From positions 3,968,001-4,032,000 of the forward strand of contig CM097885.1 in NCBI GenBank assembly GCA_044892525.1: 64,000 nt of DNA, read 5' to 3'. Source of the DNA: Schmidtea polychroa. Lineage: Eukaryota. The position numbers and the translations under genes were made by a program. Within the stretch, counting starts at the first letter, position 1, and each line of letters starts with the position of its first letter. Positions 1 to 63,499 of this stretch are shown in pieces. Under the pieces are notes generated by a model. That model did no database searches, was not told the origin of the DNA, and saw only the letters and a list, made by a program, of their open reading frames with translations.

Positions 1-1148
1 TTCAGTTACTTAGTATTAAACTAAGGAAGCCGAAGACTAATAAATAGGAAATTTAAAAGATTCAATTACTAGACTTAAATTACTCTCTGGCAATCCGACA
101 ATCCATCTAACACAAAAATCGTGAAAATAAATACCAAAAAATAAGGAAGGTTCTTCTTTTATTGTTTCAATTTGAAAAATATTTATTTGTTATATTTTAT
201 TATCATTATGTTTAATTTATCTGTAGCTCACATTACACACATTCATCAGAGCTTTCCTGAAACATTTTATTTACTGGAGACTCGGCTGGGCTCTAGATCC
301 TTTCTTTTTTCCACGAAGCATGAAATGAAAACAACAAACTTCTTAAAATAATACACTCATAACAACAGGAACCTCCCAACAATTATAATCATTGCTATAA
401 CAATAATAAAGTGATAGTTACACTGGGTTTATCATAAAACGTAAAATTAAATACACATAAAAATTTACTGTCGGTTTTGTCCCAAGAAGTTCAGTAGATC
501 AATAAAATACGGTTTGAATTAGCTATCAAATTGGATTTCTAAATGAAATTCGAATTATTCCTCAGGAGGTTCTAATTGGATTTATTGAAAGGTGTTTGAA
601 GTCTAAATGGGTGTTTTGAAAGGTAAAGTGTCCACTGAGACAGTCCTTTATATAGATTTGTTAATGTAAACCGAACCAACCAGGATCAAGCCAGTGTGTA
701 TTTTTGATCAATTTTTTATGAGTTTTTACCTTCTAAATTCCAATCATTTTTATTGGATTCTTTTATTTTTTGTTTTAATTTATTAATTTATTTTTAAATT
801 ACACTCTTTTTGATTCTGATTGTTTGGTAAATCGCTTTCTTACACCATCTTTATCGCATGGATTCGGAGCTGTTTTCTGCATCTTAGTCTCTTTTGTCAA
901 CGATTATTTCTTTGTTTTTATGTGCGACGTTTTGCATTTAACAGTTTTTATTATTTTTGTTATTTTATTACATCTTGTAATGTTTTTATTTCTGTTTACT
1001 TGATGTTTTGATTTCTTTTAAATAAACTTTATTCTTTTTCTATGTTGTGTTGGTGTCTCAGTTGACTCTTTACCTTCAATATTTTATTAATTAATACAAG
1101 AAAAGCTTATTTGGAAAATATTTTATTTTATTTCTTTTCAGCTCAACA
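1..1148 (-). mobile_element. Partial LTR-like element of the TGTTG(G/A)GCTGA family
   Basis: The minus strand starts TGTTGAGCTGAAAA at 1148. An A-rich tract and a GTTGGTTCG...TATATAAG promoter-like motif follow (~700-645), in the same order as in elements 3125-5685 and 17576-21577. The far end is not identified. Confidence 0.4.
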
Positions 1149-3432
1149 AATCTATTGTTGGGCGTTCATGCGAAAACAAACCGGCAATTACTCACAACTT
1201 ATCATTGCGTAGGTCTATGGCTGAAGGTTGACTAAAGTGAAAACGATGGAAGATTTATGCGGAGAACATGAGGCAGGTGAGCCCCTACGTTAGGACAACT
1301 CCACCATGCTCTTCCTAGCGGGTGCTCGTTAGAAGGTGTCGAAGTTTACGAGAGTATATGCGCATAACTAATAGTTGAAAGCGGGTATTGAATGCGAGTA
1401 CCTAATTATATATATGTATTATATTTGTATTTGTAGATGCGTGTGTGTTAAGGAGATTTGCAGAGCCCAGTCGAGTCTCCAGTAAATAAACTGTCTTGGG
1501 ACAGCTGGGGTGAATGTGTGTATGTGAATCAAAAATAATGACAAAAACTAAAGAATAACAAATAATAACTAATTTTTTAACTCTAAACTTATATATGAGA
1601 ATGTGATTAAGATCTCCAATCCAGCATATTTGCGATGAACGATTAGAACGTCACCTTCAGAATGATTGATAAGGAAACATCATTTTATGCCATATCATAC
1701 TCGGATTCCAAAGGGCATGGTCGCTAGGTAAATTAATTTATTCGATATATATTGCTAGAAGTAACACGATTTGTAATATTTTATGTTTCATAACATTTTT
1801 ACAATTATCATTTATGAAAGAACTCTGGTGGATCTGTCTATCATGACTGTCTAGAGACGGTCGGTAGTAATTTAGTGGTGTCGAGGTGAGTCATGGTAAG
1901 TAGAGAAGCTTCTATTAGGAAATTTATTTGAGTGAATTGAGTTAAAGGCAGTTGGGAGTTCCCTTCGAGTGGCAAGAGAATATAGTTTCGTGAAACGTAA
2001 ACATCCAAGAAACATCTTTAAATCTCGTAGTAGTTCCAAATCTTTTCGATAATCAAATCCTATAAGAAAATGTAGGAAATTTCCATCTGAGAAAATAACG
2101 TCGAAACGACCATTTAGATTAGTTCCCTCACACGTTCATTGAGAATTCTTCTTACAGAGTTTCTTTAACTCAAAGATCGGCTGTAATTTAGAAATCGAGA
2201 CGAGTCCATGATCATAATTGTCCATCTGAATTTGCAGAAATCAGCTATAGGATATTCCGTGTAGAAATACATATTTCAATTAGCATCATTGGCGTATCTC
2301 GATTTTCGATGAAGTTTTATCATCACGACCAACATGCGGCATTTGTTGGCCATTGATTAAGGCCATTGATGGGCATATAATAAGCATCCGCTTAATGTTA
2401 GGAGATTTAACGTAAATGCAATAATAGACGGCATAAAGAATTGCAAAGGCCCGAGAAATGGATTTAATCAAATAGACAAAGCTGTTTATCAGATCTACTT
2501 GACTCGATATGGGTGTTGATAATAAATTGAATTAATGTAAATTCACCCCGGAAACCGAGGAAAGCTTTAGGTCAATAAACAGCGAATATACAGAGATTGT
2601 TTATCCCCATAGCCGATCTACAGCTAGGACCGAACACCCGATATGACAAGAATATGATAAACAAAATAAAAAATAAATTTTCTCGAATAACTAATATCCA
2701 ATTAAGCCCTTTTAATAAATTATCTGTCGGAAAAGTATTATTCTTAATCATTCTCATCTGAAGTCTCATAGTTCCTAAAGTTAAGCAATAAAAATCTTTC
2801 ATCGACTCTAACCAAATCATATTTTCCCAAACTTATAGTACTTAATCATTAATAAATGATGATTTAAATTCAATACAAAGGCAAAATTGATCAAATCTTG
2901 CCCTGACAAAGACACTATTCTAAGGATGAAATTATTGAATGTTGAGTGTAATATTATGACCGTGGGTAAGAAAAGTAATGAGGATAAAAAATACTCGAAT
3001 TTTTACGGCATGTTTTTCACGATGCCAGGATAAATTATCTTGATAAGCTTCCTTTTTCTAGAATGTGCGAGTCAAGTTTACTGCCAAAAGGCCCTTAACC
3101 GTGCTTCTTCTGCGCGGATTAAAATGTTGGGCTGAGTCGAAAACATAAATTTGGAAATTAAGACAAGCAGGACATTAAATAAAATAAAAATAAGACGAAC
3201 AAAGTTAAAAAATAAATCGAAATACAAAAGAAACAAATAAATTTGGATATAAGAATTAAAACAAAAAATAAAAATAAGAAAATTAAAATAGGAAAATAAA
3301 ATGACGAATAAAATAACGTAAAATTCAATAAATAATGAGGAAATTAAAGAAACAAATAAAAAATATAATAGAAATAAGAAAAATTAAGAAAAATAACCAA
3401 AAACAGAAAAAGTAATTTAAATTAGAACAAAT

Positions 3433-3485
3433 AAGCGGTACTCAATTCTGATTGGTCCGCATAAATGAAAAATCTGTATATAAGC
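3433..3485 (+). promoter_or_regulatory. CCAAT-box (ATTGG) plus TATA promoter-like motif
   Basis: TAAGCGGTACTCAATTCTGATTGGTCCGCA...TATATAAG, conserved at 17899-17952 although the surrounding sequence has diverged. Confidence 0.55.
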
Positions 3486-3882
3486 AAACATTAAAATCAG
3501 TACACTTACCGTTAAATTTAAAACTTCTTAGGTAAAACGACCATCAGTGACATTCAGAAACTATACTACGAAAGAATCATCAGCGACAAATACAGATATC
3601 ATTCAACAGCGAGATCCATTAAATTTTCGACTCAGCCTTTCAATATCTACAGAATAATTCGGTAAGAATGTTGTTTAATAAAACTAGTATATATGCCGTA
3701 ATGATTGAATGTTTAGTATATTAAATTAAATTCTAAGTATCTTTATCTTTTCTTTTCATTTGATCCGTTTTTAGTAATTGTAACGAAGTCAGTAATGCAA
3801 TTGATAACAATAAATGTATTATTCAGAAATTTTTGAGCTATTTTATGATCGAATATTTATAAATTTTTATGTTATGAGAAAC

Positions 3883-4010
3883 GTGGAGTTGAGACGTTTC
3901 ATACCATAGTGTGAGGGGCCTTCGAGTGCTCAACCGGTGGGTATGAAACGCTTCAATCACGCAGCTGATTCGGGCCGAAATGTGGGGGCTTCCTCACGGG
4001 TCCGTCACTG
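3883..4010 (+). ncRNA. Candidate structured RNA (long stem plus pseudoknot)
   Basis: A 17-bp stem (16 of 17 positions pair) shows compensatory changes versus 18418-18550. The loop GTGAGG can pair with downstream CCTCAC. The strand is assumed from the promoter. Confidence 0.55.
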
Positions 4011-7000
4011 AAGATGCGACTAAAATTTACGAGCGGTATTCTGGAAAATAATGTCTATTTAGAGTTTAAAAAGAGTCACGCTAATAGTATGAAATGAAGA
4101 AAAATCTTTGGAGAGTTCGCGCAGTGATTGGGGATGTCACACAAATCGACACGTAGTATCACCTTTACTAAACTTAGATCATCTCTAGCATCGGGGAAAT
4201 CCATACAAAATTCTATTAATTCGTTCTGATCATTATTATCATCATATTGAACATATTAATCGAGTTCGTAATCCAACTCAAAGTTGTTCTTATAACCTTC
4301 AGTCCACTTAACTTCGTAAATTCTATTTCACCTCCTATGCCCCTCGTGTATACTCAACTTAGATCCATTTGTCACGAAGTCTTACATTATGGCTAAATCC
4401 GAAAAAGAATTATTTACCTTGTAGATAGTTTTTAAAAAAAAAAATTAACTATAAAGTACTATGGAATCAAACCGAATTCACAAGACAATGTAACACAGTG
4501 AAATTTATTTTTTTTTAAAAACGATCCAGCACGATATCTACTTAGAACACCGAACACATAATGTCTGAGGTAAATTGTGAGAGACCAAGATGAGATTTCA
4601 TCAATACGATATTCCATCCAAGTTCGAAAAATCCGATTTTTGATGCAGTTTAGAGAACAGTAAAATGTCAGCAGTTGTCGAATTGTTTTCCACGATCGTT
4701 GAGGCACTAGCGCAAATTTCCAATAGATAGTGATAATTTCCATGAACTAACAGCAGAAGATTTCCACGATGAGAGCTTACAGCAGCATAGACGATAATAT
4801 ATTTTAAATAAGCATCCAGTGAGAACTACGAGACATGTGGTATGACCAAATATCTGTGAAACTAGCATATACTAATTCAATTAGATGAAATAACAACATC
4901 CAGATCCGATAATGGGACGACAGCATGAGAATTCACATCAAAGTAGGACAAATGAAAACACCCACAGCACTAGAGTATAAACTCATACACTAGATAAGTT
5001 TCTCCGCAACCGCCACACGCACACACACCGAATGGTAGAGAGATAACCAGCATGCGAGTATACCAGTGGCCGTGACAAGGCATCCATGAGTTGTTTAACA
5101 GATGAATTTATACACGTCGTGGGTATAGCGACCGTTATCAGTGTAATCAAGTCACTGAATTTTCTTCATCCTCAATTTACGTCACATTAAGTAGGTCAAC
5201 CCAAGCGTGAGTGAGAATGACTTTAACAGATTTAGGTGGTGAAACTCTGATCTCACTCGCTAATCGAATAATTTTAGTTAATCAAATGTTTATGCCTCTA
5301 ACCGATTGAATCATTTTATGTACCACATCTGGTTAATTTAATAATGATAGTAAGATTTCTCCCCCCGACATTCAGGCACATCGATAATCCGTTTTGGTAG
5401 CTTATTTCAATGACAATGGATGTAATACCACGGGGTTTTACCATCCACTTTTCTTTTATGAACTCCGATAAGGTAGAGAAGGTTAGCCGTCTGAAGGGGT
5501 TTCTCTTGTCAGCATGATGTCACCTTTCTTTATTGTCGCGAGGTGTGCAGGCGGATTGTAAAAACTATAAAACCACAAATGACTGTCTGTCCTGTAATAA
5601 CGATTTGGGAATCGTAGTGAATTGCGATAATTATCTTCATTTTAAAGGTTAAATTCGTTGGAGTCAACCGAGTAGTGCCCCAGCAAAAATACGGATATCC
5701 GAAAATTAAACAAATATGTTGGGCAATTGAAAAAGCGAATAGAAAATAACGAGTGCACGTGGTTCTCCACACCACAAATGAAGGAGGAGAAGACCAAGGT
5801 ATTACGGCTGAAGCACTGTAGGGATAGTCTCCTAAAAGAAAGCCGGTACCAACGTTTAACAATCAAGGCCTAGTCGGAAGCCTTGTATAAAGTATATTCA
5901 AAGGCCGAAATCCAACGAAGTATTCGGGAATACCCTATAAAAGACGGAACAAACGTGTTTCCGTTGCACTATCAAGAGAATTAACCACAGTTGCCAAGAA
6001 CCAGTTGTGTTGAGCAAGGATGCCATTTCCTACCTCTGACGGATCCCGTTCTCTCCGGATCATCTAAACCCAATCGTGTATCTACGGAAACCACAGAAAT
6101 TTTTTTTTTTTTTACTGCGTCGATACCTTTTTCTGATAATAAGGATCTCGCCTCATCCGCTAAGAAACGGAAAAGCCCGTGTTGGGCCGAGAAAAATCAA
6201 AAGCCACGAGATACTATTGCTACTCTAGAAGCATCCCTGTTCGCTGTTCAATCTTCTAAAGAGCAATTTCCCAAGATTGATAGGTCCATTTTGAGAGAAG
6301 ATTTCCGGATAGTTTCCACCGAGATATTCCACCTACGAGAAGACGCAAGGCTACAGGTGGGCATAGACGCCCTGTTAGCTGAGGGCGAAATGTTTTCACC
6401 TGCTCAAATGACCCGTATCCCGAATGAAGTGTGAAATTGTATCATGTCCTTTAACCTTCGTTGTAGAACTCATTTGTAATTACCATGTGTTTTCACGTTG
6501 TGCATTTAAATTTGTTAGTGTTGAATTTGATATGGTCAACTTCGTTGTTTTAATTTTGTGTTTGGAATTCATGGACAGTTATGTAATAGAGAGGTTTAAT
6601 CATAGAAAGACGTCCCTTGGACCAGGATGTCGGTTTGTGTAAATGAGACGAGCTAAGACCTTCTACGGCACTTTAGAATCCAAACTGTGAACTTTACCAG
6701 GAATAGTTCTACCATGGGAGGTCACCTACCGGTAGATTCCAACCTATGTGCGCAGTAGCAACGTGTTACATCACCACGGGCACACATAAGGGAGATGATT
6801 CACAAACCATGAAGGTTACTTGGGTGATTCTATCTGAGTATATAAATAGTTTCTTTTCCCCCTAAGTAACCAACAATTTTATTTATTTTTCATTGCGATA
6901 ATTTACTTTTGTAAATTATCGCTATATTGTTTGGTTACACTTTTTATTGATTCAACCACACTTGATACAACCCTTTTTGCTCTGCACTTTTCAATACCAG

Positions 7001-12142: not shown

Positions 12143-12239
12143 ATTTCTTTATTATTATAATAAAATGTTAAATGAACCCGCCAAATTCAGACCGAACCTA
12201 AAATGCCTTTCCCAAGAATTATGAGTTATCGTATCAGCT

Positions 12240-12813: not shown

Positions 12814-12864
<51 letters not shown>

Positions 12865-13515: not shown

Positions 13516-13518
13516 GCT

Positions 13519-13665: not shown

Positions 13666-16472
13666 CGAGTTCAAATATAATAAAATAAATTCATTGGGGG
13701 TCATTAATTATAAAAAACTAAAATTTATTAAAATTTAATTAACTAATGGAGAATCAGAGACACTGGTGTAGTAGAATTTTACATTTTTTAATTATAATTA
13801 CGAACCAAAACAGAACCTCAATTAGGTTTTATTTTTACTTCTGTTTTGGCGTTCTCGACTTCCTGGAACTAAAATTATTAAAAAAACTATATAGCGATAA
13901 TTTGCTATAGTAAAAATTGACAAAATAAAAAAATCGAATTAGAAATTTAGATAACTAAGAAAACAGAAAGTTATATAGAAGATTAATCTTAAGATACTCA
14001 AGAATAAAGTTCCGAAAAAGATAAAAAAGAAAATTATAAAACCTAAACAATTCGAGATTAAAGTTCTGAAAAATATTAAAAGGAATATTATCAAACATTA
14101 ACAATTCAAGAATAAAATCCCGAAAAAGATAAAAAAAGAAAATTATAAAGACTTGTCCAATTTCTATGAGCCGAGGTTTCAGGTCGATTATTTTATATAT
14201 ATTATTTCTTTAATAAAAATTGTTATCGTTTACAACTGTTATTGTTAATTTTTTTATACATTTTATTTGGGGTGTCATAAGCACGCAGATACACACGCAC
14301 CCCGATTGTCCCGCCACAAGTTTTAACGGAGACTCTTTCGAGCTCATCAAATTTCTTAAATAATCTATACAAATTAGATACAAGCTAAGAGTAAACTTTT
14401 AACATAACAACTGGAAAACCCGGGACAATGGAAAACCCGAGCTATGTGAGAGAACCTCAAAATCAAATTAAGGTAAGTCGTCAAAGGAGAAATTCTTCAA
14501 AGCGACAAGAGGATGCCCGGGGTAAAATTGGATCCGAACTAATTTTACACAGCGAAATCAAATTACGAGAGAGGTATAAAAGTGACCGGCGAGAAAACAG
14601 AATTGCCAATTGATGGAAGAAAATTAAACGAAAGATTTAGTGAGAGTAATAAAGAAAACTTTGAACTTAGTGTAAATTATCGCTATGTAAAAATAAATAA
14701 ATTTGTTGGTTACTTAGCGGGAAAAAGAAACTATTTATATGTTCAGATGGAATAACCCAAGTAATCTTCATGGTTTGTGAATCATCTCCCTTATGTGCGC
14801 CCGTAGTGATGTAACACGTTGGTACTGCGTACATAGGTCGGAATCTACAGGCAGGTGAGCTCCCATGGGAGAACTATTCCTGGTAAATTTCACAGTTCGG
14901 GTTCTAGAGTGCCGTTGAAGGTCTTACCTCGTCTGATTTACACAAACCGACATCCTGGTCCCAGGGACGTCTTTCTATGATTAAACCTCTAGATTACATA
15001 ACTGTCCATGAATTACAAACACAAAATTAAAACAACGAAGTTGACCATATCAAATTCAACACTAATAAATTTTATTGCACAACGTGAAAACACAAATGAA
15101 TTCTACACCGAATGTCAAAGGACATGATACAATTTCACACTTCATTCGGGATACGGGTCATTTGAGCAGGTTAAAACATTTCGCCCTCAGCTAACAGGGC
15201 GTCTATGTCAACCTGTAGCCTTGCTTCTTCTCGTAGATGCGATATCTCGGTGGAAACTATCCGGAAATATCGATCTTGGGAACTTTCTCTTTAGAAGATT
15301 GAGCAGTGAACAGGGTCACTTCTAGAGCAGCAATAGTATGTCGTCGCTTTTGATTCTTCTCGGCCCGACATGGCCGTTTCCGTTTCTTCGCAGATGAGGC
15401 GAGATACTTATTATCAGGAAGAGGTATCGACGCTGTAGTGATTTCTGTGGTTTCCGTAGATACACGATTGGGTTTAGATGATCCGGAGAGAACGTGATCC
15501 ATCAGAGGTAGGAAATGGCATCCTTGCTCAACACAACTGGTCCTTGGCAACTGTAGTTGATTCTCTTGTTGGTGCAACGGAAACATGTTTTTCCCGTCTT
15601 TTATCGGGTATTTCCGAACTATCCCTACAGTGCACCAGCCGTAATACCTTGGCCTTCTGCTCTTATTGATGAATTTTACCTTTGTATTGAATTTAAATCA
15701 TCATTTATTAATGATTAAGTACTATAAGTTTGGGAAAATATGATTTGGTTAGAGTCGATGAAAGATTTTTATTGCTTAACTTTAGGAACTATGAGACTTC
15801 AGATGAGAATGATTAAGAATAATACTTTTCCGACAGATGATTTATTAAAAGGGCTTAATTGGATATTAGTTATTCGAGAAAATTTTATTTTGTTTATCAT
15901 ATTCTTGTCATATCGGGTGTTCGGTCCTAGCTGTAGATCGGCTATGGGGATAAACTATCTCTTTATATTCGTTATTTATTGACCTAAAGCTTTCCTCGGT
16001 TTCCGGGGTGAATTTACATTAATTCAATTTATTATCAACACCCATATCGAGTCAAGTAGATCTGATAAACAACTTTGTCTATTTGATTAAATCCATTTCT
16101 CGGGCCTTTGCAATTCTTTATGCCGTCTATTATTGCATTTACGTTAAATCTCCTAACATTAAGCGGATGCTTATTATATGCCCATCAATGGCCTTAATCA
16201 ATGGCCAACAAATGCCTTATGTTGGTCGTGATGATAAAACTTCATCGAAAATCGAGATACGCCGATGGATGTTGATGCTAATTGAAATATGTATTTCTAT
16301 ACGGAATATCCTATAGCTGATTTCTGCAAATTCAGATGGACAATTATGATCATGGACTCGTCTCGACTTCTAAATTATAGCCGATCTTTGAGTTAAAGAA
16401 ACTCTGTAAGAAGAATTCTCAATGAACGTGTGAGGGAACTAATCTAAATTGTCGTTTTGACGATATTTTCTC
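13663..16472 (-). mobile_element. Inverted, rearranged copy of the element at ~2090-2870 plus ~5940-7438
   Basis: ORFs 15257-15586, 15740-15982 and 16083-16316 mirror 5991-6434, 2572-2820 and 2286-2471. Confidence 0.8.
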
Positions 16473-16815: not shown

Positions 16816-17450
16816 ATGACCCACCTTAATCAACCTTTCTCATCTGCAATCATCTTATCCTTCATAAATACCTTAACTACACAACTAAACACAAACAAAA
16901 TTGATACTCAATTTGCCCTAAATGAATTGGAAAGGATAAATGGAAACATTAATCCACAAAGATATAATTTCCCTAAAATGCCTGATGTAATTCATAAAAA
17001 ATTAAAATCTGACTGTGAACTTTTATCTGTTAAAAGATTTAAATTTAAAATTAAACCTAAGGAGGAGATTTTGAAACTATTAAGGGATCACTTGGCTATG
17101 CAAAGACCGACCGTGGATATTTCAGACGCCTTCGGGTCCATCAAACATTACCTCATATGGCACAATTTAACAGAAATGGGTCTTATCGACAAAACCGTAA
17201 ATCTAATTAAAGATATGTATAATGGTGTAAAAACCTTCTTTGAATGTGAAGGAGAAAAATCATCTTCAGTACCTTTTATAAAGGGGGTTAAACAAGGTTG
17301 CTCAATATCTATGACTTATTTTTGGTTAGCAATTGATTTTATACTAAATAAATCCTAGTAGATCATCCTTTTCTTTTCCATGGACATAATATCAGCATAT
17401 TAGCTAAGGCAGGCGATATCGTACTAGCATCTCTCTCTTAAATATCAATT
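16816..17450 (+). mobile_element. Non-LTR retrotransposon RT fragment
   Basis: DISDAFGSIKH...GVKQGCSISMTYFWLAIDF, followed by a degenerate YADD-like AGDIVLAS. Confidence 0.85.
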
Positions 17451-17898
17451 AAAAAAGCACTGACAGAAACAGTTAACCTTGCACAAAAGTAAATTTTAAT
17501 TTAAACCATCAAAATCAGGATATTTCTCACTCAATAAAAACGAATGCCCTACGGAACTATACAATGAAAAACTACTGTTGGGCTGAATTGAAATAAAAAA
17601 TAAGAAAATAGCATTAAGAAATAAGACAAACATGATAAACAAATGAGTAAAAATAAACAAAAAATTAAAAATAAAATAAGACACATAATAAAGAAGAAAT
17701 AATAAATTAGGCAATGAAAACTAAAACAAAAAATTAAAATTAAAAATTAAGATAAGAAAACAGCAATAATAAGGAAAATAACACAAAAATCAAGTAGTTA
17801 ATAAGAAAATTAAGAAAATAAATAAAAAATATAATAAAAATAAAGAAAAAATAAGAAAATTAGCAAAGAAACATAAAAATTAAATTAAAATAAATAAT

Positions 17899-17952
17899 TA
17901 AGCGGCACTCAATTTTGATTGGTCCGCACATACGCAAAAATTAGTATATAAG
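17899..17952 (+). promoter_or_regulatory. CCAAT-box plus TATA promoter-like motif
   Basis: TAAGCGGCACTCAATTTTGATTGGTCCGCA...TATATAAG, matching 3433-3485. Confidence 0.55.
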
Positions 17953-18417
17953 GTAAGCACTGAAACAAAAATTTCATTGTTAACAAATTAACCATTTAGG
18001 TAAGAAGACTTTTAATTACATGCAGTGTTAACAAATTAACCATTTAGCGTTCAACAGTTATATAGATCAATCATCAGGACAACCTAGGAGAAATTGAAAA
18101 CAAAACCATCGATTCAGCCCACAAATCAGTCGAGTTATTACTTCAACAAAACTTTAGAATTAAATCTTACCTATTTCGAACGGATACTTTGGAAAATTTT
18201 AGTTTTGCATTAATATGTAATCTGATTAAGTAATTTATTATTTGTAATATCTGAATGTAAAATTAAAGGACTTTTAAAGAACACTTCTCTTTTCACTCGA
18301 TATCATTAAATAATTAATTTTATGGTATAATTAGTAGCAACTATTATTTTTTTTTTGCGAGTTTTATATGTTTTATGTTTTATTTTTTTATGATTTATTA
18401 AAAATTCAATGAGTAAC

Positions 18418-18550
18418 GTGGAGCTGAAATGTTTCTTACCATGGTGTGAGGGGCCTTCGGGTGCTCAGCAGGTGGGTACGGAGCATTTCAGTCACGCAGC
18501 TGACTCAGGCCGAAATGTGGGGGCTTCCTCACAGGTCCGTCGCTGAAGAT
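18418..18550 (+). ncRNA. Candidate structured RNA (paralogue of 3883-4010)
   Basis: CTGAAATGTTTCTTACC pairs with GGTACGGAGCATTTCAG (16 of 17). TGTGAGG/CCTCACA forms a second helix, and there is a C(UUCG)G tetraloop. Confidence 0.55.
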
Positions 18551-20325
18551 GTGCCTAATCTAGTGGGAAATGCTAGGGTGAAGATAAAATTTATGCAGAG
18601 TATTGGAAGAGAATTCGTATTATAAAAATTTAGATGGCAGGGAGTGTCAGGAGCAGGTCTACACAGTGATTGAGGGTGTCGCACATTTGGCATAGTTAGC
18701 AATTTCTTTACATTCGGAAAATTCGCACAAAATTCGTCACTTCACCTTAATCATCCCATCACACAAGTAAAAGTATAAGAGCTCAGCTATGATAAATCCT
18801 ATTTTAGACCCACTCATTACTCCGAAAAATAAATCTCGTCGAGACGATATTTGAATTAAGATATTCTCAGAAGCGAAAACACCTTGTGAATCTCATCAAT
18901 TTTTCTATCACTCACACTAGTATCACCTCTCGAACACCAAATCTATTTCCAATTTTTTCCCTTTTAATTATCTGTTCCTCAAAACGCCATAAAATCTGTC
19001 TCACCATCTCCATTCGTCTCGTATAATCTAAATCAGTATAGGTCCATTTGTCATCATCTCCTTACCCTATAGGTATTTGAAAAATAAACGCGAAAAACAA
19101 TTAAATACATTTTATTTTGCACAACAAAACGAAAAATTGAGGTTTACTTTCGAAAATGATCCATCGCCGTGCCTGTTTGCAATACTGAGCATATCGTAAG
19201 CCCGATCTGATCTGCGAATAGCCAGCATGAGACTCCACGAGGAATGAATTTCCTTCTAAATAATTCCAATCAAACTCGACGCACGCACGGAGAACAGTAG
19301 GCTGCTAAAATTCATCGAACCATCTTCTAATAACCCTAGAACAGTTGCAAACTCACGATAGACACCGTTAATTTCCACGATTTGATGATAATTAAGCATT
19401 CCGCTACGAAAATTGCAAAATTAGCCGATGAGAAAATACTCCATAAGCAACGCATGTAGAATGAGTAAAAGTACATGTGGCATGACAAAAGTTTGATAAA
19501 AATACACCACTTAGTCTACCGGATGAGATAATACCACTTATGCCGTCTGAGGAATTTTGAATAACATAAGAGATCCGTGAGAGTTCACACACGGAAATGA
19601 CGAGATAAGTGCATTCACAGATTTTCCGCGTATACATAAATCCAAACATCGAGATAATATCATCCAGCAGTATTCTGAAAAAAACTACATCGTTATCAAC
19701 TGACTAGCCAAATGTTAGTTTTCCATCCAATGTGAATTTTTCTTGAATACCACCTGCACGTCACCAAATGACATAATCTACATTAAGAGCATGTATAACC
19801 AACAGCTGTACGTCATTGCGGGTACACGAATTGTTATCTGAATTAACGTATCGACTAAAATCCGTCCGAGACATAAATAATTTAAGTACCTCGATAAGAA
19901 TAACCAATTTAACATTTTTTTTGGATTAAAATTGAGGTTTCTGTTATCTAATGACCCGAAGTGAAAATAAATAAGGATTAATTTGATTTTTATTCTACGC
20001 ATCTTATTCTGTTATTTAATCAATTTTAATATGTATCCATTCCCACTCGGATGGCCATGAGAATATTTCCCACAAACATTCGGGCGTATTTATCAATTTT
20101 CTCGTAAAGAATTTCGACGACTATGGGGGTGATGCCATGGGGTTTTGCCTTTTAAATTTCTTTTATAGAACTATGCTAGTGCAGTAATGATCGATCGTAT
20201 TGGAGGTGAGTTTTCTCTTGTCGGTATAAGACCGCAAATGTTTATTTTTATGTACCATTGGTCTACGGATGAAGTGAATTATTGATAATTACTCTAAATT
20301 TTCTTTCCTTTTATAGCCTACGATT

Positions 20326-21031
20326 ATGAATCCAGTCGCCAAAAATGTTCTCAAACCTTGTTACTCGTGCGCAGATAAGAACGTAACCATCAAGGAACTG
20401 CAGGCACAAATCGGCTACTCAAACGCAAGATTGATGAATTGGAAGGCACATGGTTTAGCCCAGTGCAAATGAAGGAAGTGAGAAAGAAATTGTATAGAAG
20501 CGAACACTGCCAAGATAGCCTGATCGCAGAAAATAGATCTCAGTGTATGCTCATTAAGGAACAATCTAAAGCCCTTCATAAGGTTTACTTACAAGCTGCA
20601 ACAACGCGAAAGATCGTAAGCATTCCGATCAACGAAGAGGACAATGTGTTCCCCACGCATCACGATCAGCCTCTCGACAGGTCGGCACATCGAAGAAATC
20701 ATGCCAAGGGTGTGTGGAGACGGAGCTCTCGTCCAAATCTAATGACGTAATCATCACAGCACCCCCTACTGTCAGTCCTTCTTCCAAGCCCAAACGGCGG
20801 CAACTATCTCGGGCCGAACGAAAGCGAAACCAGAGGGAGAGAGGTGCAGAAAGAGAAAAGAAGCAAGTATCAGCTAATGCATCAACAGAAGGTAGTGTTG
20901 CTCCTATAACTAGTATAAACACTGGAATCCCAGGGCGCATTATCTCCGCAGCTGGCGTCACATGGAAGGAGAATGCATCCGAATTTTTCAACCTAGAAGA
21001 GCTATTAGCAGAAACTGAATGGGAGAAGTGA
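20326..21031 (+). pseudogene. Unknown CxxC/coiled-coil/basic protein ORF (two frameshifts)
   Basis: After a TTTTATAG acceptor: MNPVAKNVLKPCYSCADKNVTIKELQ..LKRKIDELEGTWFSPVQMKE...; basic KRRQLSRAERKRNQRER; acidic tail FFNLEELLAETEWEK. Confidence 0.7.
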
Positions 21032-22203
21032 CCCAGTTTTGCGAGCAAACCGAAGTTCCAGTCGTAACTCTTGTGATTTTCAATGTGATGCTCTGTGTCT
21101 TCTTGTATTGTCTGTGTTTTTCTCTTGTACATCGATAATTTAATAAATCAGTTTTGTTTAAGTCATTGCGTTTTGCTTTATGTATCGGTAAACTTTACTT
21201 TTCCTTTTCTCTACGAGATAATTTGGTTGGCTGACACCTTTGAATAGTGTATGATTTGCAACAAACTCAGAAAACGATGGAATGTCGAGTGCAGAGGTAG
21301 AGTAGGAAGACGTAAGACCTTCTATCGGCAGTCAGGAAAAGGGAAGTCGAGGCCTCGGAAAAGAGTAGTCCTAAGGCAGGGGCTCAACTGTTTTCTGGTG
21401 TCTCGCCGGCATAATACAGGACCAACATGAAGCAATTCATGGGTATTATGTTGGAATGCAGATCGTGTGGAGTTCTACTCAAGATTGACAGAAATATGAA
21501 CTATGTTAATGTAATGGGCTATCATCCTCTAGACGGGACTTAAAAGGCGTATGAGTCAACCGAGTAGCACCTCAGCACTACCTATTATAAACGACTCGAA
21601 TATTTATATATATTTAGGAGTCGATTTATCTTATAAACATAGACATAATATAGACGGAAGCCTAGAACAAGCACTCATAGACAATATAAACGCCTTCTAA
21701 TTACACCTACACCCAGCACAGGAAATCTCAGACAATAAAATCTTTATACACTCACGTCTAATGTTCACCTTGCGCAATTGTGAAATAAATCACATGATAC
21801 TCGATTCAAAGAGAAAGGAAGGAGTAATGGGTAATAATATTTTAGCAAATCCGACACGAGACCTTTAAGAGATCCAAATTTCATAAAGATGCAAAGCAAA
21901 AATTAAATAAAGTAATTCATTTAATGATTAAAAGAATGCGTAACAGAATTTGATAGAGTTTAGAAAGCACCGAGTTCACTCATCGCATCGACAGCTCTCA
22001 TTTTGGTAAACTTACCCAAACTGATGTGAAAGCAATTTGGAACATTTTATCAGTATTGTTGTTGCGGATTGCGTTGAAATGCCTCACAAATAGCTGGCGG
22101 AGGTGAAATGTTAAGGCATTATTCAATTTGATATAAGGCAATTTTGGTATTGCATTTAGGTGCATTTTACTGCCATTCAATACATCAATAATTTCTCCAC
22201 AAC

Positions 22204-22300
22204 TAGGGATTGCAAAAACAAACAAGAAAAAAGAATACCGGTATTTCAGTATTGACATTTATTGGTACCTGGGTCCCGGTATCAATACCGGTATTCCAAA
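22204..22300 (+). mobile_element. hAT-type terminal inverted repeat end
   Basis: TAGGGATTGCA terminus with repeated palindromic ATACCGGTAT. The same end occurs at ~39190-39277, attached to a hAT transposase fragment, and at ~58715-58806. Confidence 0.65.
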
Positions 22301-22329
22301 TAATAATAATTTTTTATGTAATTATGTAA

Positions 22330-22610
22330 TGTAACGATTGCCACTATTTCTGTGCGATAATGCACTAGAAGAGCGGAAATTCGACTTAAATAAATGGGAA
22401 GCAATCCAATGTTTTTTGAAATCAACATTTGAGGCCAGCAAACAATCAATCAAGCGCTAAGCAAACTGGCAGCAAGGAAGCAGAGACCAAATGAATCATT
22501 GACGATATTTGCAAGTGAATTAAGGAGATTAGCAAAGAAAGCTATGAACGGAAAATTACAGGAGGAAAATTTAATCGGGTATTTAGTTGAAGGATTGCGA
22601 AGGGAAAAAA
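22330..22610 (+). mobile_element. Gypsy-type gag fragment
   Basis: FASELRRLAKKAMNGKLQEENLIGYLVEGLRRE, the same as 58401-58690. Confidence 0.65.
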
Positions 22611-22612
22611 TC

Positions 22613-23422
22613 ACCTCAATTTGCTCTCTGATCTGATTGCATCAATAACAAATCAATAATAAATCAAATCAATAATCAAACTTGATTGATTGATCCAATA
22701 TTTGTTTCCATCTCCATTCTCAATGAGCGATTCTCATTCTTCACTGTCGCCATTTCCTCATTCAATTCTTCTATTTCTGCTCTGTTCTCCGCCTCTTTCC
22801 TTTCAATATTGCTCAATTTCACCTACAATCACAAATATTAATAAATTAATTGCAAATAAAATTTTACATTGATATTGATAATTTCCTCACGCAATTTGAC
22901 ATTCTTCTCTCTCATTTCCCGCATCTCATTGCACAAATTGCTGATCTGATCAATCATTAATTTGCTATGACCTTCATTGTTCTCATTGAGATGGAATCTC
23001 ATTTCGTCCTTCTCTACTTCGTTCATTTCGCATCCAATTCTATTGAACGGGCATTTTATTGGCTGCTTGTTACATGTTTTCATGTGGCTCTCCATCACCT
23101 CTAATTCATCTTTGAATTGACAATTTTGCATAGGGCATTTCACTATCACTCCTGAAATTCGACTGTTAGCATTATTGTCTACTACAATATCATTTGCAAA
23201 ATTTATCATTTTCTTTCCGCAATGTTTTGCTGCTCCTGGACAGAATTTATCTTTTCCATCCAAATAATGCTCAATGCAATCAGAACAAAAGCGACAACCG
23301 CAAGGAGCATTGCAAGCATTTATCATTAAACATTTGCAAATTCTGCATATCAATTCACTGCTGATTTCATTATCAAATTCAAATTTATTTCTCTTCATCA
23401 TTTCCCATACGCTTGCAAACAT
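22613..23422 (-). pseudogene. TRAF-like copy 2, 3'-truncated (no MATH)
   Basis: The RING/zinc-finger exon and exon 2 are intact. The gene is cut a few codons into exon 3 by the gag fragment. Confidence 0.88.
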
Positions 23423-23879
23423 TTTATCTAAAATTAACAAAATTATCAAAATATTTCAACATTTTACAACATAAATCATACTTATTATATTGATTATTTC
23501 CTCTGACGTTTACAATTTCAATATTTATAATTTATATTTTGATGTAGATAAACAAACATTTTATAAATATCGTATTTTAGCTTTGAGCGCAATTCGGAAA
23601 ATTATTAATGTTAATTTTCAGCATTTTTCTCATTTGTTTTAAATATTACAAAATTATTTAAATTATAATTTGATAACAAAAAGTAAATTTTAATGGAAAG
23701 TTAAATAAATCCAAATTAAAAATAAATCAAAATATAAAAATAAATATTTTTTATATAATAAAATAAACAAAGTAATTATTCAAAGAAATTTATCGGTAAT
23801 TAGAATTTATTTGAACAGATTAAAAAGAAATTCAAAATCATCATAGCAAAAATAGAAATATAAATAAAATCAATATAAA

Positions 23880-25330: not shown

Positions 25331-26612
25331 CATTGTCCATATTGGTCCTGGACATTCATCTTCGCCTAGAGCTGAAATGTAATAATCAGCAATGACACAA
25401 ATATAATTGCATATTACTTATTCCGTAGGCTAGAAACGTTAATATTAGGAAAGGGAGAATATTTAGCTAAGCATTACCTATGGTGTTACCCTGTGAATGA
25501 ATATGAATTAATAACGAGTTGAGGGGATTTGATTTTATTCTTTCTAGCTTCTCAATGTGAAGGTGCGGAAACCTGTACACAGACAACATCCTACACTGAC
25601 ATATCGGATGGCATGCATGAAAGGAGCTGTACAACACGGCTGTTTACTCAGAACGGATAGCGAGAAATGCGTCCCAGACTGAGGGCATTTGTGTAATGTT
25701 TATGAGGGCAATGGAGGCGATTAGATTGGCTTTTCCGCAACCAGCATGAGCATTGGCACGCGGTCTGACCAAGCTTTCAATGGCTCCTCTACATGGCTGA
25801 GATGGATCTGTAAAGCATTAGATACGCCAATGGCATAATGGTAAATTATTATTCATTCCCATTGGTGAGTGAAGGAATAAATAAGTTCCTTCCTATGGTA
25901 AGGACATCAGAATAATCAATAGTGGCCATCAAAGTAATTTCGTCACCTCTCAGGCAGCTGACACGTTTCATCCATATAAAATATCACCTTTGTCAGTGGA
26001 TTAATCGAGGTTCCCTTCATTGAGATTGCGCACTTCCTGCACCGGTTTGCAGGTCCCATAATTGGTTCTGGCGTTCCATTTGCTGATAACTGCAATATCA
26101 TATTGGTATTAGCACTCTATAATTATTGATTTATTTGGTTAATGTCTCAAATTATATAACAAATTAAACTAAAAATGTTTCTGAAGGTGAGAGAAAAATA
26201 ATTGAACACACCAACACAAAACACATAATGAAAAATGCATGCAAATTTATTATAACCTTTTTTGTTCCGAAATAAATAACCGTTAACATATTGTTAACAT
26301 ATTGTTAAAATATAATTATTTCGAAATTATTAAATCATTTTGTAGGAAAATAGTTTTAATTTAGAATCCGACAGCTCTACCTTGAGCTTCAGAGAAAAAG
26401 AAGAAAATACATCGTAAAATTCAATTATAAAATTGATTAGAATATAAACTCTTTAGATTTACAGATATTTCTCAGGATACATTGCCTTTTCGCGGAGGTG
26501 GAAATCTGACAATTTAAGATTTATTCATTAAATTACAAAATATATATTTAATTTAATTATTAAAGGTGCTAGAAGGGTACGTAAGAGACCTTCAACAATA
26601 CTTGCCTCTCAG

Positions 26613-38880: not shown

Positions 38881-38899
38881 AAAAAACAGAAGATATATA

Positions 38900-39277: not shown

Positions 39278-39989
39278 GTTGTGGAGAAATTAATGCTGTA
39301 TTGAATGGCAGTAAAATGCACCTAAATGCAATACTAAAATTGCCTTATATCAAATTGAATAATGCCTTAACATTTCACCTCCGCCAGCTATTTGTGAGGC
39401 ATTTCAACGCAATCCACAACAACAATACTGATAAAATGTTCCAAAATTGCTTTCATATCAGTTTGGGTAAGTTTACCAAAATGAGAGCTGTCGATGCGAT
39501 GAGGGCAATCGGTGTTTTCTAAACTCTATCAAATTCTGTTACGCATTCATTTAATCATTAAATGAATCACTTTAATTAATTTTTGCTTTGAATCTTTCAT
39601 GAAATTTGGATCTCTTAAAGGTCTCCTGTCGGATTTACTAATAATATTATTACCCATTACTCCTTCCTTTCTCTTTGAATCTAGTATCATGTGATTTATT
39701 TCACAATTGCGCAAGGTGAACATTAGACGTGAGTGTATAAAGATTTTATAGGCTGAGATTTCTTTTGCTGGGTGTAGGTGTGATTAGAAGACCTTTATAG
39801 TGTCTATGAGTGCTTGTTCTAGGCTTCCGTCTATATTATGTCTATGTTTATAAGATAAACCGACTCCTCAATATATATAAATATTCGAGCCGTTTATAAT
39901 CGGTAGTTTTTCATTGTATAGTTCCGTAGGGCATTCGTTTTCATTGAGTGAGAAATATCCTGATTTTGATGGTTTAAAATTAACATTTA

Positions 39990-58690: not shown

Positions 58691-59980
58691 ACATAAAAAA
58701 ATATTATTATTTGGAATACCGGTATTGATACCGGGACCCAGGTACCAATAAATGTCAATACTGAAATACCGGTATTCTTTTTTCTTGTTTGTTTTTGCAA
58801 TCCCTAGTTGTGGAGAAATTATTGATGTATTAAATGGCAGTAAAATGCACCTAAATGCAATACCAAAATTGCCTTATATCAAATTGATTAATGCCTTAAC
58901 ATTTCACCTCCGCCAACTATTTGTGAGGCATTTCAACGCAATCCGCAACAACAATACTGATAAAATGTTCCAAAATTGCTTTCATATCAGTTTGGGTAAG
59001 TTTACCAAAATGAGAGCTGTCGATGCGATGAGGGCAATCGGTGTTTTCTAAACTCTATCAAATTCTGTTACGCATTCATTTAATCATTAAATGAATCACT
59101 TTAATTAATTTTTGCTTTGAATCTTTCATGAAATTTGGATCTCTTAAAGGTCTCGTGTCGGATTTGCTAAAATATTATTACCCATTACTCCTTCCTTTCT
59201 CTTTGAATCGAGTATCATGTGATTTATTTCACAATTGCGCAAGGTGAACATTAGACGTGAGTGTATAAAGATTTTATTGTCTGAGATTTCCTGTGCTGGG
59301 TGTAGGTGTAATTAGAAGGCGTTTATATTGTCTATGAGTGCTTGTTCTAGGCTTCCGTCTATATTATGTCTATGTTTATAAGATAAATCGACTCCTAAAT
59401 ATATATAAATATTCGAGTCGTTTATAATAGGTAGTGCTGGGGTGCTACTCGGTTGACTCATACGCCTTTTAAGTCCCGTCTAGAGGATGATAGCCCATTA
59501 CATTAACATAGTTCATATTTCTGTCAACCTTGAGTAGAACTCCACACGATCTGCATTCCAACATAATACCCATGAATTGCTTCATGTTGGTCCTGTATTA
59601 TGCCGGCGAGACACCAGAAAACAGTTGAGCCCCTGCCTTAGGACTACTCTTTTCCGAGGCCTCGACTTCCCTTTTCCTGACTGCCGATAGAAGGTCTTAC
59701 GTCTTCCTACTCTACCTCTGCACTCGACATTCCATCGTTTTCTGAGTTTGTTGCAAATCATACACTATTCAAAGGTGTCAGCCAACCAAATTATCTCGTA
59801 GAGAAAAGGAAAAGTAAAGTTTACCGATACATAAAGCAAAATGCAATGACTTAAACAAAACTGATTTATTAAATTATCGATGTACAAGAGAAAAACACAG
59901 ACAATACAAGAAGACACAGAGCATCACATTGAAAATCACAAGAGTTACGACTGGAACTTCGGTTTGCTCGCAAAACTGGG

Positions 59981-60687
59981 TCACTTCTCCCATTCAGTTT
60001 CTGCTAATAGCTGTTCTAGGTTGAAAAATTCGGATGCATTCTCCTTCCATGTGACGCCAGCTGCGGAGATAATGCGCCCTGGGATTCCAGTGTTTATACT
60101 AGTTATAGGAGCAACACTACCTTCTGTTGATGCATTAGCTGATACTCGCTTCTTTTCTCTTTCTGCACCTCTCTCCCTCTGGTTTCGCTTTCGTTCGGCC
60201 CGAGATAGTTGCCGCCGTTTGGGCTTGGAAGAAGGACTGACAGTAGGGGGTGCTGTGATGATTACGTCATTAGATTTGGACGAGAGCTCCGTCTCCACAC
60301 ACCCTTGGCATGATTTCTTCGATGTGCACGACCTGTCGAGAGGCTGATCGTGATGCGTGGGGAACACATTGTCCTCTTCGTTGATCGGAATGCTTACGAT
60401 CTTTCGCGTTGTTGCAGCTTGTAAGTAAACCTTATGAAGGGCTTTAGATTGTTCCTTAATGAGCATACACTGAGATCTATTTTCTGCGATCAGGCTATCT
60501 TGGCAGTGTTCGCTTCTATACAATTTCTTTCTCACTTCCTTCATTTGCACTGGGCTAAACCATGTGCCTTCCAATTCATCAATCTTGCGTTTGAGTAGCC
60601 GATTTGTGCCTGCAGTTCCTTGATGGTTACGTTCTTATCTGCGCACGAGTAACAAGGTTTGAGAACATTTTTGGCGACTGGATTCAT
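59981..60687 (-). pseudogene. Unknown CxxC/coiled-coil/basic ORF (best-preserved copy, one frameshift)
   Basis: A 197-aa open frame at 60574-59981 plus the upstream MNPVAKNVLKPCYSC segment. Confidence 0.7.
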
Positions 60688-62460
60688 AATCGTAGGCTAT
60701 AAAAGGAAAGAAAATTTAGAGTAATTATCAATAATTCACTTCATCCGTAGACCAATGGTACATAAAAATAAACATTTGCGGTCTTATACCGACAAGAGAA
60801 AACTCACCTCCAATACGATCGATCATTACTGCACTAGCATAGTTCTATAAAAGAAATTTAAAAGGCAAAACCCCATGGCATCACCCCCATAGTCGTCGAA
60901 ATTCTTTACGAGAAAATTGATAAATACGCCCGAATGTTTGTGGGAAATATTCTCATGGCCATCCGAGTGGGAATGGATACATATTAAAATTGATTAAATA
61001 ACAGAATAAGATGCGTAGAATAAAAATCAAATTAATCCTTATTTATTTTCACTTCGGGTCATTAGATAACAGAAACCTCAATTTTAATCCAAAAAAAATG
61101 TTAAATTGGTTATTCTTATCGAGGTACTTAAATTATTTATGTCTCTGACGGATTTTAGTCGATACGTTAATTCAGATAACAATTCGTGTACCCGCAATGA
61201 CGTACAGCTGTTGGTTATACATGCTCTTAATGTAGATTATGTCATTTGGTGACGTGCAGGTGGTATTCAAGAAAAATTCACATTGGATGGAAAACTAACA
61301 TTTGGCTAGTCAGTTGATAACGATGTAGTTTTTTTCAGAATACTGCTGGATGATATTATCTCGATGTTTGGATTTATGTATACGCGGAAAATCTGTGAAT
61401 GCACTTATCTCGTCATTTCCGTGTGTGAACTCTCACGGATCTCTTATGTTATTCAAAATTCCTCAGACGGCATAAGTGGTATTATCTCATCCGGTAGACT
61501 AAGTGGTGTATTTTTATCAAACTTTTGTCATGCCACATGTACTTTTACTCATTCTACATGCGTTGCTTATGGAGTATTTTCTCATCGGCTAATTTTGCCA
61601 TTTTCGTAGCGGAATGCTTAATTATCATCAAATCGTGGAAATTAACGGTGTCTATCGTGAGTTTGCAACTGTTCTAGGGTTATTAGAAGATGGTTCGATG
61701 AATTTTAGCAGCCTACTGTTCTCCGTGCGTGCGTCGAGTTTGATTGGAATTATTTAGAAGGAAATTCATTCCTCGTGGAGTCTCATGCTGGCTATTCGCA
61801 GATCAGATCGGGCTTACGATATGCTCAGTATTGCAAACAGGCACGGCGATGGATCATTTTCGAAAGTAAACCTCAATTTTTCGTTTTGTTGTGCAAATGT
61901 ATTTAATTGTTTTTCGCGTTTATTTTTCAAATACCTATAGGGTAAGGAGATGATGACAAATGGACCTATACTGATTTAGATTATACGAGACGAATGGAGA
62001 TGGTGAGACAGATTTTATGGGGTTTTGAGGAACAGATAATTAAAAGGGAAAAAAATTGGAAATAGATTTGGTGTTCGAGTGGTGATACTAGTGTGAGTGA
62101 TAGAAAAATTGATGAGATTCACAAGGTGTTTTCGCTTCTGAGAATATCTTAATTCAAATATCGTCTCGACGAGATTTATTTTTCGGAGTAATGAGTGGGT
62201 CTAAAATAGGATTTATCATAGCTGAGCTCTTATACTTTTACTTGTGTGATGGGATGATTAAGGTGAAGTGACGAATTTTGTGCGAATTTTCCGAATGTAA
62301 AGAAATTGCTAACTATGCCAAATGTGCGACACCCTCAATCACTGTGTAGACCTGCTCCTGACACTCCCTGCCATCTAAATTTTTATAATACGAATTCTCT
62401 TCCAATACTCTGCATAAATTTTATCTTCACCCTAGCATTTCCCACTAGATTAGGCACATC

Positions 62461-62590
62461 TTCAGCGACGGACCTGTGAGGAAGCCCCCACATTTCGGCC
62501 TGAGTCAGCTGCGTGACTGAAATGCTCCGTACCCACCTGCTGAGCACCCGAAGGCCCCTCACACCATGGTAAGAAACATTTCAGCTCCAC
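62461..62590 (-). ncRNA. Candidate structured RNA, duplicate of 18418-18550
   Basis: Reverse-complement copy. Confidence 0.55.
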
Positions 62591-63499
62591 GTTACTCATT
62601 GAATTTTTAATAAATCATAAAAAAATAAAACATAAAACATATAAAACTCGCAAAAAAAAAATAATAGTTGCTACTAATTATACCATAAAATTAATTATTT
62701 AATGATATCGAGTGAAAAGAGAAGTGTCCTTTAAAAGTCCTTTAATTTTACATTCAGATATTACAAATAATAAATTACTTAATCAGATTACATATTAATG
62801 CAAAACTAAAATTTTCCAAAGTATCCGTTCGAAATAGGTAAGATTTAATTCTAAAGTTTTGTTGAAGTAATAACTCGACTGATTTGTGGGCTGAATCGAT
62901 GGTTTTGTTTTCAATTTCTCCTAGGTTGTCCTGATGATTGATCTATATAACTGTTGAACGCTAAATGGTTAATTTGTTAACACTGCATGTAATTAAAAGT
63001 CTTCTTACCTAAATGGTTAATTTGTTAACAATGAAATTTTTGTTTCAGTGCTTACCTTATATACTAATTTTTGCGTATGTGCGGACCAATCAAAATTGAG
63101 TGCCGCTTAATTATTTATTTTAATTTAATTTTTATGTTTTTTGATAATTTTCTTATTTTTTCTTTATTTTTATTATATTTTTTATTTATTTTCTTAATTT
63201 TCTTATTAACTACTTGATTTTTGTGTTATTTTCCTTATTATTGCAGTTTTTCTTATCTTAATTTTTAATTTTAATTTTTTGTTTTAGTTTTCATTGCCTA
63301 ATTTATTATTTCTTCTTTATTATGTGTCTTATTTTATTTTTAATTTTTTGTTTATTTTTACTCATTTGTTTATCATGTTTGTCTTAATGCTATTTTCTTA
63401 TTTTTTATTTCAATTCAGCCCAACAGTAGTTTTTCATTGTATAGTTCCGTAGGGCATTCGTTTTTATTGAGTGAGAAATATCCTGATTTTGATGGTTTA

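Follow-up and report, generated by a model that had tools for sequence, protein, structure and literature searches.

A family of TG...CA insertions in Schmidtea polychroa behaves like long Ty3/gypsy terminal repeats

INTRODUCTION

A 4,002-bp unit in the genome of Schmidtea polychroa begins with TG, ends with CA, and lies between two copies of CTAC. What kind of element is it, and how was it moved? We analyzed this unit, called element A (17576..21577, plus strand), within a window of 64,000 nucleotides (assembly GCA_044892525.1, contig CM097885.1, positions 3,968,001 to 4,032,000), to which all coordinates refer. The original prediction, made on the letters alone, had offered two readings, an unusually large solo long terminal repeat (LTR) carrying its own gene or a non-autonomous element mobilized in trans. 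The first proved the better of the two, and the second ranks lower. We put at about 70% the probability that A, its duplicate B, and a shorter relative, C, are solo LTRs that stem from a Ty3/gypsy clade with long LTRs, comparable to Burro or Ogre, and that bear an accessory gene. A and C constitute a genuine insertion family that behaves like a Ty3/gypsy LTR; its membership in that group is likely, although unproven.

RESULTS

Two independent insertions with 4-bp target duplications

Element A starts with TGTTGGGCTGA and ends with CCTCAGCA. CTAC directly adjoins it on the left (17572..17575) and on the right (21578..21581), both on the plus strand, so that the 4.0-kb unit first described between these tetranucleotides is borne out. 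The DNA around A is a decayed repeat with a reverse transcriptase (RT) domain (RVT_1, E 4.6e-8). Another copy of this host repeat, on the minus strand at 39174-40375, matches the flanks of A with 94.6-96.6% identity and carries one CTAC at the junction (39903..39906, minus strand). As the paralogous host copy holds CTAC only once, A is a genuine insertion with a 4-bp target-site duplication (TSD). This empty site had been called the uninserted allele; the single CTAC is indeed there, but in a paralogous copy of the RT-bearing repeat and not at the orthologous site. The probability that two random 4-mers of the window agree by chance is 0.0066, with values of 0.0018 for CTAC and 0.0156 for AAAA.

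Copy B (59435..63425, minus strand, 3,991 bp) differs from A by 12 substitutions over 4,002 bp. It lies, together with the flanks of A, in a larger inverted duplication (17000-22611 versus 64000-58399) of 99.0% identity that reaches the window edge. The start at 17000 comes from a filtered subset of self-matches, and the extent is given as at least 5.6 kb. In the immediate flanks, A and B differ at 0/120 positions on the left and 0/300 on the right, compared with 2/119 and 15/299 relative to the empty copy. In longer flanks the differences amount to 8/472 and 12/731 between A and B and to 14-18 and 29-35 relative to the empty copy. A separate insertion of B is ruled out by these common flanks inside the inverted duplication, and the duplicate does not count as independent evidence of mobility. 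Further long pairs of near-identical segments exist in the window, and an N gap interrupts two of them at the corresponding place; B is for this reason best seen as a segmental duplicate or an uncollapsed haplotype. The gaps at 11987-12142 and 55533-55728 occupy corresponding positions in a 97-99% identical duplication (7847-13516 versus 49999-56936), whose copies are possibly uncollapsed haplotypes. Mobility of the family thus rests on two complete independent insertions, A/B and C, not on three.

Element C (3125..5685, plus strand, 2,561 bp) has AAAA on either side. Its first 11 nt are identical to those of A, and it carries the GAGTCAACCGAGTAG motif, the same 3' motif as in A. The two elements are colinear to approximately A 20320, with 65% identity over the first 1.1 kb and 57-64% in later blocks; C then jumps to the last 30 bp of A and lacks the open reading frame (ORF) found there. 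C is itself inserted in a homologue of that ORF, a point missed by the original prediction. This homologue belongs to a repeat called D (3063..6434, plus strand, for the ORF), and it is interrupted both by C and by stops. An acceptor-like tract, an ATG, and a CxxCAD motif stand to the left of C, and the frame continues to its right with 48% identity over 84 amino acids (E 7e-21). From one conserved landmark to a second, the distance is 74 nt in A and B and 79 nt across the flanks of C. This spacing gives whole codons only if 1, 4, or 7 nt were duplicated, in agreement with a 4-bp TSD. The proposal of a diverged 2.56-kb relative with an AAAA duplication is thus confirmed, with the frame spacing as an added check.

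A nhmmer search suggested that C plus its right flank might be a single full-length homologue of A. We rejected this because the ORF starts to the left of C and continues to its right, and because a second copy of D (16472-14410, minus strand) joins both sides without C, although a deletion in that copy spans the site; its own ORF (15697-15136, minus strand) is partly deleted. Overall, D covers 2089-7465 and 16472-13646 (minus strand), and its ORF is preceded by DNA unrelated to A (z score of 1.9 against the middle of A). The tails of A and D are not significantly similar in pairwise alignment (z 0.8-1.8). Directly after the tail block, D contains an inverted-repeat fold-back at 6863-6945, one arm of which is deleted in the second copy.

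Could these units simply be ordinary nested repeats with chance ends, rather than one element? Decayed repeats and duplications are densely nested in the window, B is a duplication, and AAAA is a frequent 4-mer. Nevertheless, this explanation, which we consider highly improbable, is largely refuted by the empty site, by the frame-based check of the junction, and by terminal motifs far above chance.

The ends point to an integrase

The 5' part of A (17576..17925, plus strand), the putative U3, opens with the short inverted repeat TGTTGGG and continues as an A-rich tract. At the 3' end, a terminal motif and short inverted repeat (21550..21577, plus strand) close with ...CAGCA. B and C, but not A, end in CCCCAGCA. 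The claim of shared termini holds for the 11-nt start common to A and C; at the other end the sequence described fits B and C and not A. The 17-nt 3' motif has 4 matches with up to 3 mismatches against 0.08 expected; it is also present in D, in reverse orientation, at 7443-7459. No TSD-compatible ends were found for D or for fragment F' (see below). A, B, and C each match the LTR end consensus TGTTRNR...YNYAACA, which is about 7 bp long as outlined in PMC3601003, at 7/7 positions on the 5' side and 6/7 on the 3' side. Of the first 10 positions, 6-8 are complementary between the two ends, as are 6-8 of the next 30, so that complementarity stops after 7-10 bp. With a 4-bp TSD in 2/2 independent complete insertions (CTAC and AAAA), these features support an integrase-type insertion, as had been proposed from the TG...CA ends and the length of the duplication.

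Ginger transposases had been put forward as one possible source. From the description in PMC2836005, Ginger elements have TGTNR ends and 4-bp TSDs, with terminal inverted repeats (TIRs) of 40-270 bp and CCGG/CCGT or RTATAY as targets. Ginger1 and Ginger2 are ruled out here by ends of 7-10 bp, by the CTAC and AAAA targets, and by the lack of a transposase in the scanned frames of A and C. A TRIM/LARD unit with two LTRs was ruled out as well, as the halves of A and of C share no direct repeat (best E 0.14 in searches inside either element). No Pfam match to RT or integrase (rve) was obtained in the frames of A and C that were scanned, namely 55 of the 92 listed (40 from A and 15 from C) and two further frames of A, which together include all 42 frames of A with at least 40 amino acids. 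The reported lack of both enzymes thus stands for these frames, but it is expected of a solo LTR rather than surprising. Solo LTRs arise by unequal recombination (PMC6696364, in the portion dealing with their origin) and lack these genes from the outset, so their absence is unremarkable. The flanks on both sides of the elements are target DNA, as in a solo LTR.

A putative promoter, splice signals, and a conserved hairpin

The layout originally described, with an A-rich tract, a CCAAT/TATA block, and a structured RNA, is present in both A and C. The first 350 nt are 59-62% A (62% in A itself, compared with a 99th percentile of 51% in the window). At positions +340 to +375 lies a block made of what we take to be a reverse CCAAT box and a TATA box, TATATAAG (17916..17952, plus strand). 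It is conserved in C (3449-3483) and probably in fragment E (682-648, minus strand), with a z score of 18 between A and C. Against an expectation of 0.02, the block pattern matches 4 times, but it was composed after the copies, including E, were known. The block may represent an internal RNA polymerase II promoter in A and C. A candidate splice donor, AG/GTAA, is found 55 nt past the TATA box in A (17998..18005, plus strand) and in C (3531/3532) and is absent from E, and an acceptor-like tract precedes the ATG in A and D. Together, the donor-like and acceptor-like sites suggest spliced expression of the ORF of A.

The best blastn block between A and C is a two-hairpin RNA element (18409..18558, plus strand), 86% identical to C 3874-4023. 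Its predicted fold has z scores of -2.65 in A and -2.64 in C, with 0 and 5 of 200 shuffles, respectively, as good. In A, the energy is -59.5 kcal/mol on the plus strand versus -37.4 on the minus strand, and the hairpin tops the 30 windows of a tiled scan (z -4.6). All pairs of the consensus (44/44) are kept in both copies, two of them through a double change and seven through a single one. We rejected a coding function, as the 21 substitutions fall 5/9/7 by codon position and every plus-strand frame of C has stops. A known RNA or ribozyme was rejected for want of Rfam support: nothing in the window reached the gathering score, no match up to E 5 covered the hairpin of A, and seven unrelated sub-threshold matches lay around that of C. 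Retrozymes carry a hammerhead ribozyme in their LTR, and an element of this type was ruled out as no hammerhead was supported by Rfam in the window.

The hairpin is followed by a non-coding middle (18560..20316, plus strand) that ends at a candidate splice acceptor (20316) and is 54% identical to C in gap-free blocks. It can be aligned between A and C (z = 28), but codon periodicity is absent (p = 0.66; 24 blocks, 1,274 nt), and 10/35 indels are multiples of 3. The "decayed middle" of the first description is thus a real, alignable region that is not shown to be a decayed gene. A decayed gag-pol was rejected on the lack of periodicity and of Pfam RT or integrase matches in the frames scanned. 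As to polyadenylation signals, ATTAAA is found near A 18262 and C 3720, each time ahead of a T-rich run, and the AATAAA at A 21142 is without an equivalent in C.

The ORF belongs to an unnamed protein family

Upstream of this AATAAA, A contains an ORF of an unnamed protein family (20326..21031, plus strand) with a CxxC motif, a coiled coil, and an Arg-rich tract. The ORF had been described as optional, and it is indeed present in A and missing from C; it is, however, broken in both A and B, near 20415 in the two copies and near 20684 in A only. Identity between A and D by codon position is 0.59/0.68/0.29, indicating that the ORF evolved as a protein, under selection.

An exhaustive search yielded 4 distant relatives (E 3e-6 to 7e-5), each fused to a different partner: an SNF transporter, glycine cleavage P, ribosomal L21, and CRAL-TRIO. 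Fusion to different unrelated host domains is expected of a dispersed repeat, and we read the four relatives as gene models that probably took in such a repeat. Protein P0006 matched the ORF profile with E 1.8e-19 and the query alone with only E 0.036. The ORF has no Pfam family, and its relatives give only weak coiled-coil matches. None of 278 candidates matched in a word-indexed search, no usable match was returned from the Atlas, and 0 of 131 pattern matches in bacterial and archaeal genomes were confirmed. PDB returned no match below E 0.34; a comparison with viral folds gave none below E 0.078, using a low-confidence model of the product (predicted template modeling score, pTM, 0.32). The model has a confident helix at residues 18-70 and a basic helix at 135-158, with the remainder disordered. 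Because of the long N-terminal helix and the basic tract, we tentatively suggest that the product was most likely an oligomerizing nucleic-acid-binding regulator of the element.

Another possibility is that A arose from a complete gypsy element by deletion or recombination, with a 5' promoter and leader, an accessory gene that was internal, and the tip of a 3' LTR. The order of promoter, donor, hairpin, acceptor, ORF, and AATAAA resembles a retroviral genome minus gag-pol, the ORF also occurs in D beside unrelated upstream DNA, and the similarity of C to A ends at the acceptor to return only in the last 30 bp. On the other hand, no internal LTR end, polypurine tract, or repeat was found in A or C, and the middle is without coding periodicity. 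Furthermore, subfamilies that are ~35-45% diverged share the layout, which would require parallel deletions or later mobility. We regard such a derivative as unlikely.

Two further fragments

Two fragments absent from the original prediction may belong to the family. Fragment E (300..1148, minus strand) starts with TGTTGAGCTGA and has an A-rich tract (52% A) and the promoter block, 494 nt from its start, without a hairpin. It is probably a distant member, although its promoter aligned alone gives weak scores (z 2.7 versus C and -0.2 versus A). Fragment F' (1156..1340, minus strand), a tail block related to A and D, ends with GCCCAACA and is only tentatively assigned. It was matched with E 5.2e-5 by a tail-block profile made from the sequences of A and both copies of D, compared with 0.069 at best for 20 shuffled windows; the block was chosen post hoc after a weak first match, and alignment of the whole tail is not significant (z ~0). 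The 3'-type end of F' lies 7 bp upstream of the start of E (spacer 1149-1155), head to tail. A short dispersed repeat with a AGAGCCCAG..GAGTCTCC motif occurs at 216-297, 1458-1586, 14272-14359, and 31664-31849; this repeat appears to truncate E, and another small repeat begins near 294.

The F'/E junction bears on the second reading, in which A and C would be complete non-autonomous units that never had a duplicated LTR and owed their movement to a Gypsy-type or Ginger/IS3-like DDE enzyme acting in trans. Such an enzyme would need short ends only, and the promoter, hairpin, and ORF would be cargo. The head-to-tail arrangement of F' and E with its 7-bp spacer resembles the circle or tandem junctions of insertion sequences, and every complete copy is a single unit with a TSD. 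Ginger ends also share TGTNR and the 4-bp duplication (PMC2836005, as cited above), but Ginger TIRs and targets do not correspond to those of A and C. In addition, the conserved promoter and the strand-specific RNA fold indicate an RNA stage, the assignment of F' is post hoc, and two insertions are too few for the absence of full-length elements to count. We therefore consider movement in trans improbable. If it did occur, A and C would be complete LTR-like cassettes that combine integrase ends of only 7-10 bp with a promoter of their own, a cis-acting RNA element, and a regulatory gene expressed by splicing. They would spread without a second LTR by means of an integrase, and possibly an RT, borrowed from gypsy elements, perhaps by way of circular or head-to-tail intermediates such as F'/E; this scenario is as doubtful as the mode of movement itself. 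Going one step further, the Arg-rich protein would bind the hairpin and serve in export or packaging in the manner of Rev.

Genomic context

The window has a GC content of 33.6%. It contains four TRAF-like RING exons and three MATH exons, one pair of which was covered by a domain scan. The TRAF-like cluster (RING, zf-TRAF, MATH) lies in duplicated segments at 8446-9903, 22838-23455, 34067-35548, and 51996-53450 (minus strand), with one MATH exon lacking and a MATH fragment at 13518-13665. Planarians show TRAF expansion, low GC, and a gypsy-dominated LTR content, according to the relevant parts of PMC6109357, PMC11410931, and bioRxiv 10.64898/2025.12.11.693146. The AT-rich host DNA with its many TRAF-like genes fits a planarian-like genome (PMC6109357).

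A broken Ty3/gypsy internal region lies at 35718-38910 on the minus strand and comprises a zinc knuckle, protease, RT (best match Ty3), RNase H, and integrase. With this gag-PR-RT-RH-IN fragment, the required machinery exists in this genome. Other mobile-element remains include a DDE_3 transposase fragment (30226-30648, minus strand; Pfam E 2e-12) and two related gag-like fragments (42362-43797 and 57051-58360, minus strand), one with a weak zinc-knuckle match. A minisatellite at 48376-48755 has 27 copies of a 14-bp unit with 94% matches. No tRNA genes were found in the window. A 208-amino-acid stop-to-stop frame (26532-27158, plus strand) is without a Pfam match; we have the impression that the motif pattern of its C-terminal part recalls Rep-type HUH endonucleases.

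DISCUSSION

Taken as solo LTRs, the elements suggest the following history. A full element with an LTR on either side of gag-pol would have been reverse transcribed and then integrated by a presumed DDE integrase, which would recognize the 7-10-bp TG...CA ends and duplicate 4 bp of the target; the ends and the duplications are what we observe. Recombination between the LTRs would then have removed the coding interior, so that a single LTR stayed behind, framed by the duplicated bases. Later, segmental duplication, or failure to collapse a haplotype, would have yielded B from A plus its flanks. Within the LTR, a short A-rich U3 of 350-500 bp would close with the CCAAT/TATA promoter for the plus strand. 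The long transcribed R/U5 would hold the hairpin, most likely a cis signal of the genomic RNA that may act in packaging, dimerization, or poly(A) control. The R/U5 of A would also hold the accessory gene, probably expressed from spliced RNA, and C would lack this gene cassette. On this reading, A/B and C would belong to two subfamilies within one Metaviridae clade with long LTRs, and their host would be an animal with an AT-rich genome.

Several observations weigh against this interpretation. Within the 64-kb window, no copy was found as a pair around gag-pol, and the gypsy fragment at 35718-38910 is cut at both ends, has no LTR attached, and is unlinked to the termini of A and C. The layout is odd for an LTR, with a U3 of ~0.4 kb and an R/U5 of 2.2-3.6 kb containing an ORF, and animal gypsy training LTRs average 330-695 bp in the three gypsy rows of the table in PMC3601003. 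There is no clearly conserved poly(A) signal, as C has neither AATAAA nor ATTAAA beyond 3809. On two sequences, the covariation in the hairpin falls short of significance (126/500 shuffles reach it), and the tiled scan of C, whose tiles split the hairpin, gives only z -1.6 there. Of 8000 longer proteins scored with the ORF profile, 3 were returned, and they carry neither RT nor integrase. Finally, the interpretation gives no account of why C inserted in a homologue of the very ORF that C lacks.

How do A and C compare with known systems? The closest likeness is with animal Ty3/gypsy solo LTRs, which share the ~7-bp TGTTRNR...YNYAACA-type ends and the 4-bp TSD (described in portions of PMC3601003 and PMC6696364), as well as an internal TATA promoter, a conserved stem-loop in the transcribed part, and the lack of enzyme genes. 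A and C differ from these by a short U3, a very long R/U5, and the absence of a clearly conserved AATAAA, and A also by its internal ORF. Compared with the averages in those three rows (PMC3601003), A and C are 4-12 times longer. Ginger1 and Ginger2/Tdd (PMC2836005, in its account of these families) are alike in their TGTNR ends, 4-bp TSD, and size range of 2.6-7 kb; their own TIRs, specific targets, and transposase are not found in A or C.

Longer LTRs are on record. Planarians harbor giant Burro elements, of more than 30 kb in total with up to 25 kb of internal sequence, and Ogre LTRs measure 1.9-6.5 kb (both from the passages of PMC6431247 on large elements). The figures for these planarian elements (Burro/GYPSM1) imply multi-kilobase LTRs; the elements also have accessory ORFs, and they resemble A and C by description only. 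Ogre belongs to a plant clade, the Tat lineage of gypsy, and its extra ORFs are described in the same source as internal, not in the LTR as in A. The Burro polyprotein and accessory domains (BIR, BCL2, ankyrin) were not detected in the scanned frames of A or C. A lead to Tribolium Woot, taken from GC content, was dropped for want of evidence. Insect gypsy elements of the Woot/Osvaldo lineage have multi-kilobase LTRs and a 4-bp target duplication, a likeness to A and C that is likewise by description only; we know of no LTR-borne ORF in that lineage.

LTR-borne or LTR-overlapping accessory genes and structured RNA response elements, with an Arg-rich tract as in A and with spliced expression as suggested for A, are found in retroviruses such as mouse mammary tumor virus (MMTV; sag) and HERV-K (Rec and its response element, RcRE). 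LTR ORFs of this type lie in U3, upstream of the promoter, whereas that of A lies downstream of it. PDB and viral-fold searches detected no similarity in sequence or fold between the ORF of A and retroviral LTR-borne accessory genes. A narrow literature search returned next to nothing on an LTR-borne ORF in long gypsy LTRs, which does not show that the layout is unpublished. A mollusc LTR survey used length limits of 80-1500 bp (methods given in PMC6238403), and LTRs of 2.6-4 kb would be missed by LTR finders at common limits such as these.

If A and C are solo LTRs, they represent an animal gypsy lineage with LTRs of 2.6-4 kb in which the promoter is followed by a gene from an unnamed family, an unusual layout, and the chimeric gene models in protein collections would be explained as repeat contamination. 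The conserved hairpin together with the ORF would offer a small, convenient entry point to the control of poly(A) use or packaging by very long LTRs. A cassette moved in trans, if true, would instead reveal a new route by which a non-autonomous element uses a retroelement integrase. Set against these known systems, the A/C family is a well-supported relic, mostly of the expected kind, and its size, gene, and hairpin are the unusual part.

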